The notes below the pieces were generated by a model. The model ran no database searches. It had not been told where the DNA came from and worked only from the letters and a program-made list of their open reading frames with translations. The position numbers were made by a program, and so were the translations under genes. Shown piece after piece: positions 27,046 to 46,566 of a stretch of DNA of 64,000 bases (position 1 is its first letter; every line of letters begins with the position of its first letter). Source of the stretch: Gemmatimonadota bacterium. Lineage in GTDB: Bacteria > Gemmatimonadota > Gemmatimonadetes > Palauibacterales > Palauibacteraceae. The stretch spans positions 608,001-672,000 of the forward strand of contig OZ220691.1 of the NCBI GenBank assembly GCA_965116475.1. Reading direction: 5' to 3'.

Positions 27046-27864
27046 TCAAGAGTCGTTCTCGTGCACGGCGGCCGACAGGGCGGCGGACAGCTCCTGGAAG
27101 GCGGCCTCGCCGCGGCCGAGGGCGGCGATGAGCGCGGACCCGACGACGACCCCGTCGGCCATGCCCGCGACCGTCGCCGCCTGTTCCGGCGTCGAGATCC
27201 CGAACCCCACCGCCACCGGCAGCCGCACCGCTTTCCGAAGCCCTCTCACCTGGTCCTCAAGCGAAGCGTCCAGCGCCTTCCGCGCGCCCGTGACGCCGAG
27301 GCGAGAGATGTAGTAGAGGAACCCCGAGGCGTGGCCGAGGATGGTCTCGAGGCGCGCCCGCGGCGTGGTGGGGGCCGCGAGCGGGATGAGGTCAAGCGCA
27401 CCGGCCGCCAGCCGCCGCTCCAGCTCCGGGTGCGAGCCCACGGGCAGGTCGGTCACGAGGAGCCCCGCCGCCCCCGCGGCCTCCGCCCGGGCCAGGAAAC
27501 GCTCCACTCCCATGCGAAGAATCGGATTCAGGTAGGAGAAGAGGACGACGGGCGGCAGTTCGCCCGAGATCTCGGCCAGCTGGTCGAGCGTCGACTCGAC
27601 CGTGACGCCCCGCTCCAGCGCGCGCCAGCTCGCGGCCTGGATCGTCGGCCCGTCGGCGAGCGGATCGCTGAACGGGATCCCGAGTTCGATGATGTCCGCG
27701 CCGTCCGCCGCCAGCCGCTCCAGCAAACGCGGCGTGTCCGCCGGCCGCGGGAAGCCGCTCGACAGAAAGGGGATGAACGCCGCCCCGTCCCGGCCTTCGA
27801 AGGCGCCCTCGATCCGCGATCCGACGTGCGTCGCGGCGGGCGCCGTACCGCCGGGGACGCTCAA
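27046..27864 (-). CDS. trpA: Tryptophan synthase alpha chain
   Basis: IELGIPFSDPLADGPTIQ, YLNPI, GFLYYISRLGVTG, VGFGIS, ADGVVVGSA. A TTG start overlaps the upstream stop. Confidence 0.93.
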   Translation of the reverse strand: MSVPGGTAPAATHVGSRIEGAFEGRDGAAFIPFLSSGFPRPADTPRLLERLAADGADIIELGIPFSDPLADGPTIQAASWRALERGVTVESTLDQLAEISGELPPVVLFSYLNPILRMGVERFLARAEAAGAAGLLVTDLPVGSHPELERRLAAGALDLIPLAAPTTPRARLETILGHASGFLYYISRLGVTGARKALDASLEDQVRGLRKAVRLPVAVGFGISTPEQAATVAGMADGVVVGSALIAALGRGEAAFQELSAALSAAVHENDS

Positions 27865-37600: not shown

Positions 37601-38461
37601 GAGTACTTCGACACGAAGACGCTCAAGATGTACATGTCGGGCAACCGCCAGCAGCGCCAGTGGATCATCCAGGCGGCGCGCGACCTCGAGCTCATGCCCA
37701 CGACCGAGGGCGGACTCGACTACAAGATCGACATCACGCACGCGATCGACGGATACCCCGGCATCGAGCACAACCTGCCGATCGCGCCGATCTACTCCGA
37801 CGTGGTGGAGCTGTTCAAGACGTCGGAGACGACGAACAGCCCGACGCTGCTCGTTTCATACGGCGGTCCGTTCGGGGAGAACTACTTCTACACGCACGAG
37901 GACGTGCTGGGAGATGAGAAGCTCGCGACGTTCGTGCCCAAGGCGAACATCGACGCGCGGGCGCGGCGGCGCGGGCCCGGCGCCGGGGGGAGCCCCGGAG
38001 AAGGCGGCTGGTTCCTCGAAGAGGAGTACGTCTTCGCGCGCCACGGCGAGTTCGTGAAAACGATGCTCGAAGAGGACGCCCGCATGGCCGTCGGGAGCCA
38101 CGGACAGATCCAGGGCGTCGGGTATCACTGGGAGCTGTGGGCGATGGCGGCCGGCGGCGCCTCGAACTTCGACATGCTCAGGGCGGCGACGATCCTCGGG
38201 GCCGAGGCGATCGGATTCGGGGATCAGCTCGGGAGCATCGAGCAGGGCAAGCTCGCGGACATCGTCGTCCTCAACTCGAACCCGCTCGACGACCTGCGGA
38301 ACACGGTCGACATCCGCTACGTGATGAAGGACGGACGGCTGTACGACGGGATGACGCTGGACGAGATGCACCCCGAGGCGCGGACGCTCGAGCGGCAGCG
38401 GCCGGCGGAGGAAAACGCCGTCGGCGCCGCCGCCGGAATCCGCGGGAACCCGCGCAGGTAG
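34661..38461 (+). CDS. Secreted PD40/TolB-like beta-propeller + amidohydrolase protein, tandem paralog with acidic insertions
   Basis: Same motifs (DTHYH, GSHGQ, GKLADIV). ATGA overlap with the upstream paralog. Confidence 0.88.
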   Translation: MSPRERLARIGRAAALAALVASVAGVPAAAQVVLGPGGPGNRNPLPLRGARKATFTATEGTWMSLDVSPDGTTIVFDLLGDLYTMPIEGGSASPLLTGMAYDTQPRFSPDGESVAFISDRSGGDALWKMRLDLTDTTRVAGGGSSLMLSPEWSPDGVYIVASRSSGLGGVAQLAMYHAERGSPLPLPGSPLQKRIGAAFSPDGRYVWYAGGSGDWTYNAVLPLYQLYRYDRDTGTTTTMTNRYGSAFRPAISPDGRWLVYGTRYNADTGLRKRDLETGEESWLAYPVQRDEQESRAPLDLLPGYAFLPDGSAIVISYGGRIWNVPMDGGEPAEIPFEAEVELDVGPRVSFEYQIDTTAMVTASQIRSPVVGPDGEQVVFTAFDRLWIRDLPDGEARRLTEGDAGEFHPQWSPDGRWIAYTTWDDTDGGHIMKVAAEGGEPIRLSATAALYYNVAWSPDGGRIVASRGAARQLKEAAGAFFGPIGGEFVWVPAAGPEPAEAEVISPTGLRDVPHFAADDPDRIYAYSPVEGLVSFRWDGTDVKRHLIVRGRQGIAGIGDPHPNEWEFLPRRVFPWRQGPDPTDPDPAAEPGGPTPAGLIMLSPEADRAFVQFGRDLYVVDMAEIGEQPPTIMLITLNSAPLPIRKVTDVGGEFPSWAPDGGALHWSLGNVLFTYDLDHVEAEEEEEEVTARGRALLRVRAAAITDTLAEKRAEVDSLENADEEVPEELEDEITRLQADSVQVVADSLLARADSIRQAAEEVAEKSAAVRAGDEEVLADTTETYEAHERRIEAKLPRDIPRGTVALTGGRIITMTEVRDEAASDTTGAPADTAGAEEEEEPEEPDEPAMKPRIIENGVVLVTDNRIVAVGPADSVEVPDSATVIDVSGKTLVPGFIDTHYHAQWLVPEVHPEEVWQYLATLSYGVTTTRDPQTATTDILSYTDRVRTGGMTGPRIYSTGPGVFAGENIRDADHAKTILRRYAEYFDTKTLKMYMSGNRQQRQWIIQAARDLELMPTTEGGLDYKIDITHAIDGYPGIEHNLPIAPIYSDVVELFKTSETTNSPTLLVSYGGPFGENYFYTHEDVLGDEKLATFVPKANIDARARRRGPGAGGSPGEGGWFLEEEYVFARHGEFVKTMLEEDARMAVGSHGQIQGVGYHWELWAMAAGGASNFDMLRAATILGAEAIGFGDQLGSIEQGKLADIVVLNSNPLDDLRNTVDIRYVMKDGRLYDGMTLDEMHPEARTLERQRPAEENAVGAAAGIRGNPRR

Positions 38462-38465
38462 CGAA

Positions 38466-38493
38466 CTAGCGCATGTAGCCTAGCGCATGTAGC
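38466..38493. repeat. Perfect 14-bp tandem duplication CTAGCGCATGTAGC x2 covering the stop of the SBP gene
   Basis: Read directly from the sequence. Confidence 0.85.
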
Positions 38494-39766
38494 AAGGGGT
38501 GGCGTTGGCGGCGGCCCACGGGTGAACGATCCGGAGGGCCAGCCCGCCGGCGCCGTCGTCCTGCCACTGGACCTGCAACCCTTTGAGCCCGCGCTGGGCG
38601 CCGGCCTCCGCGTCGCCGATGGGGGAGACCTCGTACGGACCCGCGATGGTCCCGGTCCGGGCCGAGAACAGGAAGTCGCGGAGCGCGCCGCGGTTGGGTC
38701 CGCCCGTCCCGGACATCGTCTGGTCGAGCCCTTCGGCTACGAGTTCCACGGCCGCGAAGCCACCCGCCGCGTGGTACCCCGGCGTCGTGCCGTACGCCGC
38801 CTGGTAGCGGCCGACGAAGGTGGCGTTGTCCGCGATGAACCCGGCCGTCTCGAGGGCCGGGTGCCACGGCGAGTTGCCGGCGACGCACCGCGCGGCCTGC
38901 CGCACGTCTTCGACGAAGTGCTGCTGACCGGGCCCGATGATCAGGCTCATGAGGACCGGCCTGTAGCCCACGGCGGGCGCCGCGGCGGCGAAGCCGGCGG
39001 CATCGGCCGAGTAGCCGCCGCCGATGAAGAGGTCCGCACCGGCGTCGCGTGCCGCGGCGGCGATCGCTGTGTGGTCGGCCGCCCCGACGTCATAGGACCG
39101 GTCCAGCACGATCTCCAGTCCGTGGCGGCGGACCGCTTCGCGCACACCCTCGGCGACCGACGACGGAAACGGGGAGTTCTCGTACACGATCGCCGCGGTC
39201 CGGGCCCCGCCGAACAGGGCCACCTCCACGGAACCCTGCAGGTAGGCCGGTCCCGGCGTCAGCAACTGGACGCTCCATTGCCGCTGCCGCCCGGACCAGA
39301 TCGAGGGCGCCGCCGCAGCCGGCGCGACCATCGGGACGCCGGCGGCCTCGTTCACGGCGAGGACGGTTTCCGTGATCGGGCTGCTGTAGGGCCCCAGCAG
39401 CGCCTCGACCGTGCCGGAGGCGATGAGTTCCGCGTACAGGCGCGCGCTCGTCTGGGCATCGCTCCCGTCGTCGCGAAGCTCCAGTTGCACCGGCCGGCCG
39501 CGAATCCCCCCCTTCTCGTTGAGGATCTCGACGGCGAGACGGTACCCGCGCACGACTTCGATCCCCTCCACGCCGTGCCGCCCGGTCTCGGAGATGGCCG
39601 CCGCCAGCGTGATCGGCGCCCCGTCCGAACCCGGCTCCGGCCCCGTGGGGTCCGCCGGGTCGTCCACGCACGCGGCCGCGACCAGAACCAGTGTCAGGAA
39701 GCCTGCGGCAAAACCGGCCGTGCGACCGGCGCGATGTACCCGGTATGTATCCGTACTGAGTCCCAT
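38480..39766 (-). CDS. Branched-chain amino acid-type ABC substrate-binding lipoprotein (LivJ-like), stand-alone
   Basis: Lipobox VAAAC; SETG, NEKGGI.GR.V.L...DD.SD, LLGPYSS, QWQ. Confidence 0.82.
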   Translation of the reverse strand: MGLSTDTYRVHRAGRTAGFAAGFLTLVLVAAACVDDPADPTGPEPGSDGAPITLAAAISETGRHGVEGIEVVRGYRLAVEILNEKGGIRGRPVQLELRDDGSDAQTSARLYAELIASGTVEALLGPYSSPITETVLAVNEAAGVPMVAPAAAAPSIWSGRQRQWSVQLLTPGPAYLQGSVEVALFGGARTAAIVYENSPFPSSVAEGVREAVRRHGLEIVLDRSYDVGAADHTAIAAAARDAGADLFIGGGYSADAAGFAAAAPAVGYRPVLMSLIIGPGQQHFVEDVRQAARCVAGNSPWHPALETAGFIADNATFVGRYQAAYGTTPGYHAAGGFAAVELVAEGLDQTMSGTGGPNRGALRDFLFSARTGTIAGPYEVSPIGDAEAGAQRGLKGLQVQWQDDGAGGLALRIVHPWAAANATPCYMR

Positions 39767-39798
39767 GAATATCGCCTCGAAACTTGAGGACAGTTCTG

Positions 39799-40488
39799 TT
39801 AACGCAACGTCACTTCGTCACCGTCCAGGGTGCGGATCCCCGCCACGAGCGCGGGCTCCGGCCCCTCGTCCACTTCGAGCGCCAGGTCCAGCGACGCGAG
39901 GGTGGATCGTACCGCGGCGGGGTCCGGATGTTCAGCCCGGAACGAGATGAGCCGCCCGCCCGGCGGCGTCGCGCGGGCCGGGTGCGGCGTCGTTCCCCAG
40001 TCGATGAAGAAAGGTACGAGACCTTCGTGCAGGACGGCGGTGAAGGCCGTGATCTCCCAGCTCAGCTCGGTGCCGTCCGGCCGGAGCCGCGAGCCGGGCC
40101 GCACCGGGCCCAGCGGCACGCCTCGGCTCGACGCCCGTGCGGCGAGCGCCTCGAGGTCGGTTCCGCGGGCCGCCCACGTGACGAGCCGGGGCTCGGCGAG
40201 TCCCTCGATCCCGAACGGGAGCGGCTCGTCCCGCGGAGGCGCTTCGGGGTCCGGACCGAGGATCTCCAGGTAGATGTCGCCCCCGAGCGAGAGGAGATGG
40301 TTCGCGGTCCCGAGGTTCTCGTGGCGGCCGCCGAACGCGGCTTCGACGCCGAGCCGCTCGGCGACCCACGCCACCCCTTCCTCGAGGTCGGTGGTCCCCA
40401 GCAGCAGATGGTCGAGATTCGGCGGAACGGCCGGCGCGGCCGGCGCACCCGGTCCGCCCGGTGGCAGTGTCGGCGGGAGCATGGCCAC
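39799..40488 (-). CDS. VOC/glyoxalase-like domain protein
   Basis: LDHLL...DL..G......LG....GG.H...GT.N.L..LG...YLEI; PFFIDWG. Confidence 0.85.
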   Translation of the reverse strand: MAMLPPTLPPGGPGAPAAPAVPPNLDHLLLGTTDLEEGVAWVAERLGVEAAFGGRHENLGTANHLLSLGGDIYLEILGPDPEAPPRDEPLPFGIEGLAEPRLVTWAARGTDLEALAARASSRGVPLGPVRPGSRLRPDGTELSWEITAFTAVLHEGLVPFFIDWGTTPHPARATPPGGRLISFRAEHPDPAAVRSTLASLDLALEVDEGPEPALVAGIRTLDGDEVTLR

Positions 40489-40493
40489 TTCCG

Positions 40494-41066
40494 TCAGCCT
40501 CCCTCGTCTTCGAGTTCCAGGTCTTCGAGTTCGACGCCGAGCCCGTCGGCGATCCGGTTCACGAACGCATAGTAGGCGGTGACGGCGCAGATATCGTGGA
40601 TCGCGCGATCATCGAACCCGTGCGCCTTCAATCCGTCGACCGCGGATCCGTGCTCGCCGCCCGGGTCGAGCGTCAGCCGCGCGGCGTAGTCGAGCATCGC
40701 CCGGTCGGCCTCGTCCAGTTCGGCCGTCCCATGGTCCGTCGCGAGGGCGGTGATGAGGCGTTCGTGCGCCTCGTTGGAGCCGCCGGCGCCGGTCGCGTCG
40801 GGCAGACGGTCGAGCAGGCGACGGAGACCCTCTCCGTGATGGACAATTCAGTAGCGGCAGGCGTTGAGCCCCGACACGACGACCGCAATCATCTCCCGCT
40901 GGATCCGGGTCAGCGGCCCCGGCCCGTACATGAGTTCGCGGTAGAGATCGTAGTGGAGCCGGATGACGCGGCTGTGGACGCCGTGGATACGGATGATGTT
41001 GTCGTCGTCCGCGACGCGGTCCTCCTCGGGGATCCCCGCCGGATCCGGGTAGTCGATGAAGGCCAC
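40494..41066 (-). CDS. AhpD/CMD-like peroxidase-related selenoprotein (C-R-Y-U motif; Sec at TGA 40848-40850), 190 aa
   Basis: ORFs 40848-41066 and 40494-40697 are in one frame. The only interruption is a TGA at the second Cys position of EMIAVVVSGLNAC-R-Y-U-IVHH. The C-terminus reads YYAFVNRIADGLG, and a SECIS-like hairpin follows the TGA. Confidence 0.85.
40821..40837 (-). promoter_or_regulatory. Candidate bacterial SECIS hairpin ACGGAGA-GGG-UCUCCGU
   Basis: Perfect 7-bp stem with a G-rich apical loop starting 10 nt after the UGA. Confidence 0.7.
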
Positions 41067-41068
41067 GG

Positions 41069-42289
41069 TCAGTGCTCGTCCGAGTCGGGTTCGCGGCCGG
41101 CCGACAGGATGCGGGCGACTTCCTCCACGTCCTTGTCGCCCCGGCCGCTGAGACAGATGACGACGCGGCTCCCCGCCCAGCGCGCGGCTTCCCGCCGCAG
41201 GCCCGCCAGCGCGTGGGCGCTCTCGAGCGCCGGGATCAGCCCCTCGAGCCGGCAGAGGTCCCGGAACGCCGCGAGGGCCTCCTCATCCGTCACCGATTCG
41301 TAGCGGACCTGTCCCGTCTCCTTGAGCCACGAATGCTCCGGGCCGACGCCGGGATAGTCGAGGCCGGCGGACACGGAGTGGGCGGGAACGACCTGCCCGT
41401 CCTCGTCCTGGAGCAGGTAGCTGTAGTTGCCGTGAAGCACCCCGGGCTCGCCGGCCGTGAGCGAGGCGGAGTGCCGGCCCGTCTCGACGCCGTGCCCCGC
41501 CGCCTCCACGCCGACGAGGGCGACGCGCGCCCCCGCCGCGACCTCACGGTTGCGCTCGATGAAGGGGGTGAAGATGCCGATCGCGTTGGAGCCGCCGCCC
41601 ACGCAGGCGAAGACCGCGTCCGGCTCCACGCCGCGGTCGGCGAGTTGCCCGACCGTCTCGTCGCCGATCACGCGCTGGAAGTCGCGCACAAGTTCCGGAT
41701 AGGGCGCGGGGCCGACGACGGAGCCGATGATGTAGTGCGTCGTGTCCACGTTCGTGACCCAGTCGCGGATCGCCTCGTTCGTCGCGTCCTTGAGCGTCCG
41801 GCTCCCGCTCGACACCGGGATGACCTCGGCGCCCAGCATCTCCATGCGCTCGACGTTGAGCGCCTGCCGGCGCATGTCCTCCTCGCCCATGTAGACGGCG
41901 CACTCGAAGTCGAGCGCCGCGCAGGCCGTGGCCGTCGCCACGCCGTGCTGGCCCGCGCCCGTCTCGGCGATGATCCGGGCCTTGTTCATGCGTTTCGCGA
42001 GCAGCGCCTGGCCGATCGTGTTGTTGATCTTGTGGGCGCCCGTGTGGTTGAGATCCTCGCGCTTCAGCCACAGGTCGAGCCCGAGGTCCGCCCCCAGGCG
42101 CGGCGCCCGGTAGAGCGGCGTCGGCCGTCCCACGTAGTGCGCGAGGCTGGCATCGAGCGCCGCCCGGAAGGCGGGATCGTCGCGGGCTTCGGCCCATGCA
42201 GCGGTGAGTTCATCGAGCGCCGGGATCAACGTCTCGGGCACGAACTGCCCGCCGAAGTCGCCGAACCAGCCGGGGGCCGGGCTGCTCAT
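41069..42289 (-). CDS. trpB: Tryptophan synthase beta chain
   Basis: [53 protein letters not shown]. Confidence 0.96.
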
Positions 42290-42915
42290 TTCGCGGCCGC
42301 CAGGAATTCGAGGATGAGGTCGAGCGACTTCTCCCCCGGAGCCCGCTCGACGCCCGAGGAGACATCGACGATGTCCGGACGCACGTCCCGGATCGCGCGC
42401 GCCACGTTGTCCGCGTTCAGCCCGCCCGCGAGCGCGAGCCCGCACCCGTCCCGTTCCAGCTCCGCCAGCCACTCGTGGGGGAAGCCCGTCCCGGTGCCGC
42501 CGGGTCCGCGCGGCGAGAACCCCTCCACGAGGATCGCGTCCGCCGCCTCCCGGTACTCGTCCCACCCCCGGGCCAGCGCGTCGCTCGACGTGGGCCGGAG
42601 GCCCTTCCAGACGTCCAGCCCCTCGTCGCGCAGGCGGTCGCAGAGTTCGGGCGGCTCGGAGCCGGCGAGCTGCGCGACGTGGAACTCCGCGATGTCCCGT
42701 TTGACGAGGATCTCCGCCGGGCCCGCGTCCACGAACACCCCCACGGCGCGCGTGCCGCCTTCGAGCGCCTCCACGACCCCGGCGGCTTCCCCGGCCGTGA
42801 TCTCCCGCACCCGGCCGGCGAACACCACGCCCACGTAGTCCGCGCCGGCGCGGGAGGTGGCCGTGGCGTGCCGGGGCTCCCGGAGACCGCAGATCTTCAC
42901 CCTGGCCCGGCTCAT
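42286..42915 (-). CDS. trpF: Phosphoribosylanthranilate isomerase
   Basis: VKICGL, VGVFV, GGTG, LAGGL...[13 protein letters not shown]. Confidence 0.92.
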
Positions 42916-43763
42916 GGCGCGCCGTCTCCGTCGGCCGCGGCGTCGGCGCCGGCCGGCTGCATCCGGCCGCTCCGGGGCCGCCGGGGATGGCCGACGAGCG
43001 CCTCGACCCCCGCCGCCGGATCGCCCGCCATCAGCCAGCCGCCGACCAGCACCGCGTCCGACCCCGCTGAGCCCGCCGCCGCCGCGTCCTCCGCGGACCG
43101 GATCCCGCTCTCCGCTACGGCCACGACATCCGCCGGAAGCGCCTCGATCAAGCTCAGCGAGCGCGCGAGGTCCACCTCGAAGGTCGCCAGGTCCCGCGCG
43201 TTCACGCCGACGATCCGGGCCCCGGCTTCGAGCGCCCTCCCGATCTCCTCCTCCTCGTGGGCCTCCACGAGCGCCGCGAGGCCGAGGTCGTCCGCGAGTT
43301 CGAGCAGTTCCCGCAGCCGGGCGTCGGCGAGCGCGCGCACGATGAGCAGGATCGCATCCGCGCCCGCGGCCCGCGCCTCGTACAACTGGACGGGATCTAG
43401 CGTGAAATCCTTGCGGAGGACGGGAACCCCCACGGCGTCCTTCGCCGACCTCAGATCGTCCAGCGAGCCGCCGAAGTAGCGTTCATCCGTGAGGACCGAA
43501 ATCGCGGCCGCCCCCCCGGAGGCGTACACGCTCGCCACGCCCGCCGCCTGGGCGTACGGGTTGATGTCGCCGGCGGAGGGCGAACGGCGCTTGAACTCCG
43601 CGACGACGGAGACTTCCCCGGGTCGGCGCAGGGACGCCTCGAAACCGCGCGGGGGCGGGGCTCCCTCCGCCTGCGCGCGAATCGCGCTCCGGAACAACTG
43701 GAGCCGCGCGACCTCTTCCCGCTTCGCCGCGAGGATCTCGTCGAGAATCGTGTCGTGTGCCAT
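42912..43763 (-). CDS. trpC: Indole-3-glycerol phosphate synthase
   Basis: [43 protein letters not shown]. Confidence 0.94.
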
Positions 43764-43832
43764 GGGCGCCAAGCTGCGACCGCCGCTATCCCGCCGCAAA
43801 ACCTCGGCGGCCGCGCCGGTTCGCGTGGAAGG

Positions 43833-43875
43833 TTGCGCTTCGGTGCATGTTCGGGTACATTCGGGTATCCTTCGG
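43833..43875 (+). promoter_or_regulatory. lexA sigma70 promoter (TTGCGC-N17-TACATT) overlapped by four TTCGG direct repeats (candidate LexA operator)
   Basis: -35 at 43833-43838 and -10 at 43856-43861. TTCGG at 43839, 43850, 43860 and 43871. Confidence 0.65.
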
Positions 43876-43932
43876 CCCGCCGCAAGCGTCTGGGCGGGCG
43901 CGGTGCGGAACCTGCGAGCGGAGTGAGAAACG

Positions 43933-44541
43933 ATGGCGCTTACGAAGCGACAGCGGGAGATGCTGGACTTCCTCGAGGGCTTCATCCGGTTCCGCGGGTA
44001 TTCCCCGAGCTTCGAGGAGATCGCGGAGGAGTTCGGCTACCGCTCGCTGGCGACGGTGCACGAACACCTTCAGAACCTGCAGGCGAAGGGGTATATCCGA
44101 AAGAACTACAATGAGAGTCGGTCGGTCGAACTGGTGGAGGGAAAGCTCCAGGTCGCCGCGGTCGAACTGCCGCTGTACGGCAACGTGGCGGCGGGTCAGC
44201 CCATAGAGGTCATCGAGGAGCAGGAGACGGTCTCCGTCCCCGAAGACATGATCGCGGGCTCCCTGAGCGAACACTATGTGCTTCGGGTGCGCGGCGATTC
44301 GATGATCGACGAACAGATCCGCGACGGCGACTACGTCATCGTCCAGTCGCGCGAAACGGCGCACAACGGCGAAATGGTGATCGCGCTCGTCGATGGCGAG
44401 AACGCCACCATGAAGAAGATCTACCTGGAGAAGGGCCGGATCCGGCTTCAGCCCGCGAACCCGGCGCTCACACCGATCTACCTGCACCCATCGCAGGTCA
44501 CGGTCCAGGGCGTGGTGATCGGAGTCATCCGGCGCTACTGA
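43933..44541 (+). CDS. lexA: SOS repressor LexA
   Basis: LTKRQ..GYSPS..EI wHTH, VAAG cleavage site, GDSM serine, TMKK lysine. Confidence 0.96.
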   Translation: MALTKRQREMLDFLEGFIRFRGYSPSFEEIAEEFGYRSLATVHEHLQNLQAKGYIRKNYNESRSVELVEGKLQVAAVELPLYGNVAAGQPIEVIEEQETVSVPEDMIAGSLSEHYVLRVRGDSMIDEQIRDGDYVIVQSRETAHNGEMVIALVDGENATMKKIYLEKGRIRLQPANPALTPIYLHPSQVTVQGVVIGVIRRY

Positions 44542-44542
44542 C

Positions 44543-44668
44543 GCCCTGGACGAAACAACTCACTGCAGTTGACGGAGGACCGCTCTCGACTCCCCGAGAG
44601 TTCCCGTCCCGACGGCCACCCACCTCCCACAATAACCGTCGGGGCGGAGGTTCCCGTCCCGCCAGGGC
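44543..44668. other. Multi-stem structured intergenic element (possible ncRNA or terminator) between convergent lexA and trpD
   Basis: Closing stem GCCCTGG/CCAGGGC encloses three hairpins and a 12-bp direct repeat. Confidence 0.45.
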
Positions 44669-45681
44669 TAGTTTGTCGGTCGAAACGATTGCAGGGATTG
44701 GAGTTGCGCCTCGGCGGCGCCTGAATCGATGGATTGCTCCGCGGCGGCGACGCCGGCGGCGAGGGTGTCCACGGCGCCGGCGGCCCAGAAGGCGGCGGCG
44801 GCGTTGAGCACGACGGCGGCGCGGCCGGCTCCGGCTTCGCGGCCGTCGATGACGCGCCGGACCCGTTCCGCGTTCTCCTCCGGTTCGCCCCCCGCCAGGT
44901 CGGAAGGCGCGTACTCCGGCCAGCCGAAGTCGGAGGGCGCGACCTCGAACTCGGACAGCGTCCCGTTTTCGATGCGGAAGACCCGGGTCGGGCCGAGGGG
45001 GCTCAGTTCGTCCATGCCGGGCTCGCCGTGGACGACGAGGGCGCGCTCGTGGCCAAGTTCGAGGAGGGTGTCGGCGACGAGGCGCTGAAGGTCGGGGTGG
45101 GCGACGCCGACGACCTGCCGCCGGACGCCGGCCGGGTTCGCGAGCGGGCCGAGGAGGTTCATGATCGTGGTCACGCCGAGCGCGGCGCGGACGGGGGCCA
45201 CGTGCCGCATGGCCGGGTGGTGGGCAGGCGCGAACATGAACACGAACCCGGTCTCCTCGAACATCCGCCTCTCGTCCGCGGGAGGGAGTTCGATGGCGAC
45301 GCCGAGGATCTCGAGCACGTCGGCGCTACCGCACTTCGAGGTGAACGAACGGTTTCCGTGCTTCGCGATGCGGACGCCGCCGCCCGCGGCGACGATGGCG
45401 GCCGCGGTCGAGATGTTAAAGGTGGTCAGCGTGCCGCCGCCGGTGCCGCAGGTGTCGATGATGCGGTCGTCGTCCAGGGCGAGCGGGATCATAGCCTTCC
45501 GCAGCGCGCGGACCCCGCCGGCCACCTCGGCGGGCGTTTCCCCGCGCATCCTGAGCGCGGCGAGGAGCGCGGCCATCTCGGCCTGCGTGGCCTCGCCGCT
45601 CATGAAGCGGTCGAAGGCGGCCTCCGCCGCCGCGGCATTGAGCGTCTCGCCGGAGAGGACGCGCCGGATCGTGTTCGTCAC
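44668..45681 (-). CDS. trpD: Anthranilate phosphoribosyltransferase
   Basis: DTCGTGG, FNIST, AKHGNR, GSADVLE, NLLGPL.NP, GMDELS. GTG start at 45681. Confidence 0.94.
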   Translation of the reverse strand: MTNTIRRVLSGETLNAAAAEAAFDRFMSGEATQAEMAALLAALRMRGETPAEVAGGVRALRKAMIPLALDDDRIIDTCGTGGGTLTTFNISTAAAIVAAGGGVRIAKHGNRSFTSKCGSADVLEILGVAIELPPADERRMFEETGFVFMFAPAHHPAMRHVAPVRAALGVTTIMNLLGPLANPAGVRRQVVGVAHPDLQRLVADTLLELGHERALVVHGEPGMDELSPLGPTRVFRIENGTLSEFEVAPSDFGWPEYAPSDLAGGEPEENAERVRRVIDGREAGAGRAAVVLNAAAAFWAAGAVDTLAAGVAAAEQSIDSGAAEAQLQSLQSFRPTN

Positions 45682-45735
45682 CTGGTTTCCCCCTGGTTTC
45701 CTCTCGCCGGTTTCCCCTCGCAACCCGAAAATCGC

Positions 45736-45750
45736 TAGTCTTCGCGGATG
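45736..45750 (+). promoter_or_regulatory. -10 element TAGTCT 6 nt before the truA ATG (candidate leaderless transcript)
   Basis: TAGTCT-tcgcgg-ATG with no Shine-Dalgarno. Confidence 0.4.
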
Positions 45751-46566
45751 TCGGATGCGACCGCCGCGACCGCCCGCTTCCGGGCCACGATCGAGTACGA
45801 TGGGACCTCCTTCCACGGATCCCAACTACAGCCCGAGGCGCGCACCGTCCAGCGCGAGGTGGAGGAGGCGCTCGGGAAACTCTTCAATCGGCCGGTCCGC
45901 ATCGACCTCGCCGGCCGCACGGACGCGGGGGTTCACGCGACGGCGCAGGAGATCGGGTTCGACGCGGCCCACGCCTGGAGTCCGGAGGAACTGGCCCGGG
46001 CGCTCGGGGCCACTCTCCCCGACGATGTCACCGTCCGGAAGGTCAGCCGCGCGGCGTCCGATTTCCATCCGCGCTTCGACGCCGAAGGGCGCCGGTATCG
46101 CTACGTGGTCGCGGAAGGCGGCCTGAGGCAGCCGTTCCTGCGCGACCGCGTCTGGATCCCGCGCTGGCCGCTCGACCGCGAGGCGCTCGCCCGGCTGGCG
46201 GCGGCCATCCCCGGGGAACGGTCGTTCGAGCGCTTCGCCCGCGCCGGGCAGCCGGAGCGGGGGACGCGCTGCCGGGTCGCGAGCGCCGCCTGGAGCTTCG
46301 ACCGTCCGCCCTTCCTCTTCTTCGAGATCGTCGCCGACCGCTTCCTCCACCACATGGTGCGCTACCTCGTGGGGACCGCCGTGGAAATCGCCGCGGGGCG
46401 CCGTCCGTTCGAAGACTTCGAGCGATTGCTGGCGGGAGGCGCGGCATCGAGACCGGTCTTCCCTGCCCCGCCCGGCGGGCTCTACCTGACGGGCGTGCGC
46501 TACGGCGGCGAATGGAATGTCGGTCCCGGGGTCCCCTGGCTCCCGGCCGAAGGACATCGAACGTGA
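45748..46566 (+). CDS. truA: tRNA pseudouridine(38-40) synthase
   Basis: IEYDGT.F.G.Q, AGRTDAGVHA, FHPRF, FLHHMVR, GLYL..V.Y. Confidence 0.94.
   Translation: MSDATAATARFRATIEYDGTSFHGSQLQPEARTVQREVEEALGKLFNRPVRIDLAGRTDAGVHATAQEIGFDAAHAWSPEELARALGATLPDDVTVRKVSRAASDFHPRFDAEGRRYRYVVAEGGLRQPFLRDRVWIPRWPLDREALARLAAAIPGERSFERFARAGQPERGTRCRVASAAWSFDRPPFLFFEIVADRFLHHMVRYLVGTAVEIAAGRRPFEDFERLLAGGAASRPVFPAPPGGLYLTGVRYGGEWNVGPGVPWLPAEGHRT

Follow-up and report, generated by a model that had tools for sequence, protein, structure and literature searches.

We analysed a 64,000-nucleotide stretch of the genome of a Gemmatimonadota bacterium (NCBI GenBank assembly GCA_965116475.1, contig OZ220691.1, positions 608,001 to 672,000 of the forward strand), hereafter called the window, and focused on an AhpD-like gene on its minus strand at 40494..41066. 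This gene, which belongs to TIGR01926 and has the CMD fold, comprises 190 codons plus a stop, with a GTG start at 41066-41064 and its own TGA stop at 40496-40494. The sole internal stop of the 190-residue frame is a TGA at 40850-40848 (codon 73), in the sequence TGC CGC TAC TGA ATT GTC CAT CAC (C-R-Y-U-I-V-H-H). The read-through product around this codon is ...S-G-L-N-A-C-R-Y-U-I-V-H-H-G-E-G-L-R-R..., and its key positions are E58, C70-R-Y-U73 and H77. The list of open reading frames (ORFs) splits the gene into a 72-aa piece (40848..41066) and a 67-aa piece (40494..40697) in the same frame, the second of which begins at an internal ATG of the selenoprotein frame. The N-terminus MAFIDY is common to homologues. 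The original prediction had joined the two pieces into one frame broken only by this TGA and had described a hairpin with a perfect 7-bp stem and a G-rich loop 10 nt downstream. The coordinates and codons of the frame proved correct, and so did the hairpin, ACGGAGA-GGG-UCUCCGU, which lies at 40821..40837 on the minus strand, 10 nt 3' of the UGA, and overlaps codons H77-R82. The UGA at 40848..40850 (minus strand) was read as selenocysteine (Sec, U73) from the conservation of its column and the existence of Cys forms, and the predicted 190-aa selenoenzyme was supported by the family score, the conservation of the UGA and the presence of Sec machinery. We are highly confident that this is an intact gene for a 190-residue AhpD-like selenoprotein whose UGA is decoded as Sec, sited in a tryptophan (trp) biosynthesis cluster.

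The read-through protein was then compared with known families. It matched the Pfam CMD domain (E 7.1e-12) and the NCBIfam model TIGR01926, 'peroxidase-related enzyme', with 103.1 bits against a cut-off of 81.8, residues 22-179 aligning to profile positions 30-174 of 178. The solved structures 2pfx, 3c1l, 2oyo, 6k40 and 2prr matched at E 1.2e-21 to 1.7e-15 (2pfx best, 1.2e-21); 6k40 is presumably the Deinococcus radiodurans protein DR1765. In the three alignments shown, the CxxC of 2pfx, 3c1l and 2oyo falls on C70..U73, and homologues likewise carry CxxC at this column, so that a Cys aligns to the TGA in both homologues and solved structures. All rows of a 21-row alignment have H77, which lies four residues past U73, and E58 falls in a Q-R-E-M-I-A-V stretch conserved among the full-length rows. 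In the AhpD of Mycobacterium tuberculosis, a Glu and a His form a proton relay and two Cys are redox-active, and we assume that E58 and H77 sit at the positions of this Glu and His. Sec73 would stand in for the second Cys of the family CxxC motif, giving C70-x-x-U73, and would be the attacking nucleophile, with Cys70 as the resolving residue. By homology, the most likely role of the protein is that of a thiol/selenol-dependent reductase of (hydro)peroxides or disulfides.

Next, we assessed the conservation of the UGA. Matches were found in 54 of 61 related genomes, and 91 of the 97 listed matches carry exactly one TGA; the other six are two fragments that end short of the site and four Cys forms. 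Within the genus, the TGA is codon 73 in all 30 orthologues (own locus included), down to 64% identity, and the surrounding motif is C-[RH]-Y-U-[IV]-x-H-H-G-E-G. The TGA also occupies the same column in 62/62 stop-bearing homologues (L014-L075), some down to 26% identity. Among 80 public loci from species-representative genomes, 77 have TGA, one TGT and two TGC, although this set overlaps the 61 related genomes, which come from the same kind of source, and the counts are not independent. The titles of these public loci include Gemmatimonadota, Acidobacteriota, Thermoanaerobaculia, Desulfobacterales, Polyangiaceae, Calditrichaeota, Chloroflexota, Zixiibacteriota, Krumholzibacteriota, Phycisphaerae and Actinomycetota, among others. 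Overall, TGT or TGC stands at the Sec column in seven loci, namely the four Cys forms of related genomes and three public loci. These results bear directly on the possibility that the TGA arose by a recent nonsense mutation, leaving a pseudogene in two dead pieces. Such a pseudogene would agree with the two short pieces given by standard ORF calling and with a hairpin that, by itself, lies within chance expectation. Against it stand the TGA at the identical codon in 30/30 orthologues and in homologues of as little as 26% identity, a downstream frame that is open and conserved, and the presence of Sec machinery. The conservation of the TGA rules this explanation out, and we give it a negligible probability.

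The database entries of the family offered a second alternative, in which a variant genetic code or a suppressor tRNA lets the UGA be translated as a standard amino acid (Trp, Gly or Cys). Full-length database relatives show C or W at the Sec column, and the several members with W (P0002, P0003, P0004, P0019, P0030, P0048 and P0050) would favour such a reading. However, TGA is a normal stop in this genome, since it ends both trpB and the selenoprotein gene itself, and the only tRNA with a tca anticodon is tRNA-SeC. Moreover, the W forms match TGA in near-identical DNA, as illustrated by P0002, which is 92% identical to L126, a locus whose DNA has a stop at the W position; the W forms are best read as a TGA translated as Trp by the gene caller. 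We rejected the variant-code explanation on these three grounds and regard decoding as anything other than Sec as vanishingly improbable. Other public entries (P0026, P0054 and P0115) are C-terminal fragments of about 105 residues that start right past the TGA and are named 'peroxidase' or 'carboxymuconolactone decarboxylase family protein', which bears out the expectation that standard annotation splits the gene. The gene should be called as a single 190-residue selenoprotein, and a second copy in this genome needs the same correction, as do many Gemmatimonadota genomes.

To evaluate the hairpin, we considered it both in the single sequence and among relatives. As described in the available part of the paper, bacterial selenocysteine insertion sequences (SECIS) are stem-loops that lie a short distance 3' of the UGA and have a G in their apical loop (PMC1088965). 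Folding a 46-nt piece gave the hairpin of the gene, with its 7-bp stem and GGG loop, as the minimum-energy structure (-9.0 kcal/mol). Several results weigh against its being a SECIS element. The minimum-energy fold of a 71-nt piece does not contain it, and shuffled sequences folded equally well or better in 186 of 200 cases for the 71-nt piece and 187 of 200 for the 46-nt piece (z +1.2 and +1.3, respectively). An Rfam scan of 40400-41200 at E values up to 10 returned one irrelevant long non-coding RNA match (E 5.3). The 3-nt loop is also at the small end of the range for bacterial SECIS elements. Among 20,000 random 60-mers of this G+C-rich genome, 10.6% contained a perfect stem of at least 7 bp in the same position window, 3.1% did so with a loop starting with G and 1.2% with Watson-Crick pairs only. 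Single-sequence folding was rejected as evidence for a SECIS element, as the hairpin is not in the 71-nt fold and shuffled sequences do equally well; the hairpin would be significant only through comparison with relatives.

We then counted synonymous codons in 35 distinct orthologues that are 58-99% identical. The codons under the stem are nearly fixed: H77 is CAC in 35/35, E79 is GAG in 34/34, G80 is GGT in 34/35, and both L81 (CTC) and R82 (CGT) are uniform in 35/35, while G78 uses only GGA or GGG, both of which pair with U. Control codons outside the stem vary, with four codons at R83, five at R57 and four at G50. In 34 distinct sequences aligned in the same register, 99.2% of 238 stem cells are paired, compared with 29-53% when the register is slid by 1-3 columns. 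Compensatory changes on both sides occur in two of the seven stem pairs: at pair 17-27, two sequences have C-G where the other 32 have G-C, and at pair 20-24, 31 have A-U, one has C-G and two are unpaired. Pair 18-26 varies between A-U (20 sequences) and G-U (14). None of 500 shuffles reached the observed covariation score, a count that is not a probability as the sequences are related.

More distant homologues extended this picture. At least five different stem sequences and registers occur among the six subfamilies with a common U column. The subfamily of the gene, CRYUIVHHGEGLR, has the hairpin ACGGAGA-GGG-UCUCCGU, and CFYUTEAHGEDLR has the same stem core (fifth base A or G) with a GGA loop, often extended to 8-9 bp. 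The other hairpins are CGACCUC-CGGGAA-GAGGUCG in CHYUTQAHAHDLREE, ACGCAGA-GUU-UCUGCGU in CHYUTEAHAEFLR, GGCGGCG-GUG-CGCCGCC in GGAPULGLHTAAVRRL, and CCGCGCU-GGC-AGCGCGG in CRYUIAAHAALAARL. A perfect stem of at least 6 bp was found in 62/62 TGA-bearing homologues, starting 11-20 nt past the U of the UGA, and in 73 of the 77 public TGA loci; across both sets a G is the first or second base of the loop, and the stem starts 11-24 nt past that U. The remaining four public TGA loci, without a perfect 6-bp hairpin under the strict rule, count on the other side. Among the seven Cys-codon loci, four have no hairpin and three, all among the four from related genomes, have loops UCU, UCAAC or CAA; a hairpin with a G-first loop thus occurs in 0/7 Cys forms (0/3 public and 0/4 from related genomes). 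Synonymous freezing, compensatory changes and subfamily-specific hairpins at the same place all support the hairpin as a SECIS element. In the proposed mechanism, the mRNA hairpin 10 nt downstream would recruit SelB, and SelB with Sec-tRNA(Sec) would decode the UGA at 40850-40848 as selenocysteine.

The machinery for this decoding was sought in the genome, which is a single 3.62-Mb contig with an estimated completeness of 96%. A profile search found selA (491 bits) and selB (372.6 bits), and tRNA-SeC(tca) lies at 3530731-3530826, about 5 kb from selB. The selD gene (G000:C1:176319-177246, locus L082) has the N-terminus H-G-A-G-U-A-C-K with an in-frame TGA, which makes SelD itself a selenoprotein. 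However, selD matches its model in two frames, over model positions 1-95 and 93-310, and has one extra base at G000:C1:176974-176975 (L082:775-776) relative to the 5/5 closest relatives, whose selD genes each form a single frame with one TGA. Hence selA, selB and tRNA-Sec, all looked for as a check on the original prediction, are intact, and selD is present but split by one extra base. A true selD frameshift would speak against Sec decoding: the strain would be unable to make selenophosphate, and the gene would yield a 72-residue fragment.

This raises a third explanation, in which the gene descends from true selenoprotein genes but is not decoded now, the UGA acting as a terminator at an early point in the loss of the Sec trait. 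The two-frame selD and its extra base, set against five single-frame relatives, are the evidence for it. On the other hand, selA, selB and tRNA-Sec are intact, and both AhpD-like genes of the genome still have their TGA and hairpin, with the frame downstream open. Furthermore, the single 3.62-Mb contig is presumably a long-read assembly, and single-base indels are a common error of such assemblies. An assembly indel is the simpler reading of the extra base, and we assumed it because every other part of the Sec system is intact. We consider loss of decoding very unlikely and retain the reading of an intact gene with a UGA decoded as Sec, and the locus adds good support for the use of Sec by a lineage of uncultured Gemmatimonadota whose genomes each have at least two AhpD-like selenoproteins.

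The second AhpD-like selenoprotein gene of the genome lies at G000:C1:228966-229534 on the minus strand (L081), with its TGA at 229289-229291. It has the motif C-F-Y-U-T-E-A-H-G-E-D-L-R and the same stem ACGGAGA/UCUCCGU with a GGA loop, and scores 130.6 bits with TIGR01926 and 44 bits, against a cut-off of 175, with NF041238 (AhpD_rel_CFYUT). Most relatives carry both copies. Separately, a G-G-A-P-U-L-G-L-H subfamily (L065, L067, L068 and L069; relatives G018, G036, G004 and G030) has kept the Sec codon and its own G+C-rich hairpin; the position three residues ahead of its Sec is not a Cys, which would leave it without the usual resolving residue.

We next examined the gene neighbourhood, in which the trp genes lie on the minus strand. 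The upstream end of the order is trpD (44668-45825), followed by a plus-strand lexA (LexA_DNA_bind plus Peptidase_S24; 43933-44541) between trpD and trpC, and this divergent lexA parts the trp genes into two groups. The second group begins with trpC (indole-3-glycerol-phosphate synthase; 42912..43763; Pfam IGPS E 6.8e-76), whose start was placed at the Met of MAHDTILDE, and trpF (PRA isomerase; 42286..42915; Pfam PRAI E 2.8e-27), which shares a 4-nt coordinate overlap with trpC at 42912-42915. Then comes trpB (tryptophan synthase beta; 41069..42289; Pfam PALP E 4.5e-49; stop 41071-41069). Its likely start is the ATG at 42289, which overlaps the trpF stop; the listed ORF extends upstream to 42565, and the start was taken from an alignment in which ORF residues 93-498 match the trpB of relatives at 79-97%. 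Downstream of the selenoprotein gene, on the same strand, lie a Glyoxalase_3 gene of the VOC superfamily (39799..40488; Pfam PF13468 E 5.8e-44; GTG start at 40488) and, 32 nt after it, a Peripla_BP_6 periplasmic solute-binding gene (38480..39766; Pfam E 7.6e-45). The position of the latter is kept in most genus loci, and it is possibly the last gene of the same transcription unit. The predicted spacings, 2 nt from the trpB stop to the GTG of the selenoprotein gene and 5 nt from its stop to the GTG of Glyoxalase_3, were confirmed.

This arrangement was compared across relatives. The end of trpB is no more than about 100 nt upstream of the selenoprotein gene in 27 of the 30 genus loci; two others have an insert of 0.6-0.7 kb between them, and in one trpB is 2.7 kb away. 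Glyoxalase_3 likewise lies downstream in 27/30. One examined locus with a 0.5-kb gap, in relative G004, holds a 167-aa ORF between trpB and the selenoprotein gene (L089:1501-2004). Outside the genus, we observed the order trpB-ahpD(U)-Glyoxalase_3-trpA in L088 and trpB-ahpD(U)-trpA in L090, L117 and L125, the selenoprotein stop overlapping the trpA ATG in L090. In the window, trpA (27109-27792, minus strand) lies about 12-13 kb off, with at least one large plus-strand ORF in between. This trpA stands apart from trpB, and in related genera it is adjacent to the selenoprotein or Glyoxalase_3 gene, which suggests that an insertion or rearrangement may have split trpA from trpB in this genus. Of the 80 public loci, 25 have trpB in their 3-kb flank, all of them titled Gemmatimonadota, Gemmatimonadetes or Candidatus Palauibacter, against 0/55 of the others. 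As judged from these gene orders, the trp link is real but confined to one clade, in which related genomes are not independent observations.

The original prediction had also proposed co-transcription with trpCFB. The gene order trpC-trpF-trpB-ahpD(U)-Glyoxalase_3 is probably transcribed together, given the 4-nt coordinate overlaps, the 2-nt and 5-nt spacers and the conserved gene order. A promoter and terminator scan of 38000-46000 gave no promoter-like and two terminator-like sites, with 2.6 of the latter expected by chance; neither lay between trpC and Glyoxalase_3, nor between trpC and the solute-binding gene, and the scan is uninformative either way. Contigs of the metatranscriptomic library X2 cover all 30 bins of 39799-42300, and one 282-nt X2 contig spans 40730-41021 with no difference listed within 40821-40850. 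As a point against co-transcription, contigs from an RNA library can derive from DNA and prove no single transcript. RNA run X23 contains one contig, at 40468-40638, which has only 21 nt on the Glyoxalase_3 side and does not bridge the junction. Runs labelled sponge metagenome, including two metatranscriptomic libraries, hold 39799-42300 or close variants of it, and the closest named relatives are metagenome-assembled genomes titled Candidatus Palauibacter (Gemmatimonadota).

The placement of a Sec redox gene within a trp cluster is conserved and unexplained. A literature search returned no paper combining the trp operon with carboxymuconolactone decarboxylase, and among papers on Gemmatimonadota and selenocysteine, none was about selenoproteins of that phylum, as far as titles and the starts of abstracts tell. 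We think it doubtful that the AhpD-like selenoprotein is a working part of the tryptophan operon in this clade and not a passenger. If it were, producing a Sec reductase alongside tryptophan synthase could shield the pathway, or its indole and tryptophan products, against peroxide damage, and such protection may matter in an oxygenated host-associated habitat, such as that suggested by the sponge metagenome runs.

Finally, we compared the protein with known systems. Three assignments were tried and rejected. For a canonical, AhpC-reducing AhpD, there was no AhpD equivalog among the five NCBIfam matches, and the neighbours are trpB and Glyoxalase_3, with no adjacent ahpC. For gamma-carboxymuconolactone decarboxylase (PcaC), the CMD domain is present, but peroxidase-related models fit best and the adjacent genes include no pca gene. 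For NF041238, the protein scored 41.2 bits against the cut-off of 175 and covered only profile positions 217-339 of 357. The NF041238 model has a related C-terminal CxxU domain, and the second copy shares its C-F-Y-U-T motif while scoring far below its cut-off; both copies of this genome are without its N-terminal part of about 200 residues.

With the M. tuberculosis AhpD, the partner of AhpC, the protein shares the CMD fold, and the core model TIGR00778 gave 44.3 bits against a cut-off of 27.8; the Glu...CxxC...His arrangement is presumably common to both. DR1765 and the structures 2pfx, 3c1l, 2oyo and 2prr belong to the same fold family by sequence (E 1e-21 to 2e-15 for the structures), but they carry Cys at the second position instead of Sec, and their genes need no recoding signal. 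According to the available part of a review, deletion of DR1765 makes Deinococcus radiodurans more sensitive to H2O2, and complementation needs the CxxC cysteines (PMC8945050).

The closest known system is the AhpD-like selenoprotein family (TIGR01926, COG2128, 'AhpD-like 1' of Zhang and Gladyshev 2005/2008). In the accessible portions of the respective papers, AhpD-like CxxU proteins were reported in 2005 as a new selenoprotein family with 27 Sargasso Sea sequences in COG2128 (PMC1088965), and were the fourth most abundant selenoprotein family in the Global Ocean Sampling (GOS) data, with 299 CxxU sequences and 902 Cys homologues (PMC2398784). A 2026 review table of prokaryotic selenoproteins includes 'AhpD-like protein, TIGR01926, CxxU' (PMC13188914), and a 2026 database paper takes the family as its browsing example (PMC13326102), as seen in the available sections of both. 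The selenoprotein had been predicted to be hidden, which holds in so far as it is mis-annotated in databases; since its family is already known as a selenoprotein family, there is no hidden novelty. The trp-cluster setting and the host lineage are not described in the accessible text of the family reports. The protein studied here exceeds the score cut-off of the family and has the same CxxU, likewise a bacterial-type hairpin with an apical-loop G just 3' of the UGA, and common Cys homologues, with no structural difference from the family. These results indicate that the gene is a real selenoprotein gene belonging to the already known AhpD-like selenoprotein family and not a new kind of system.

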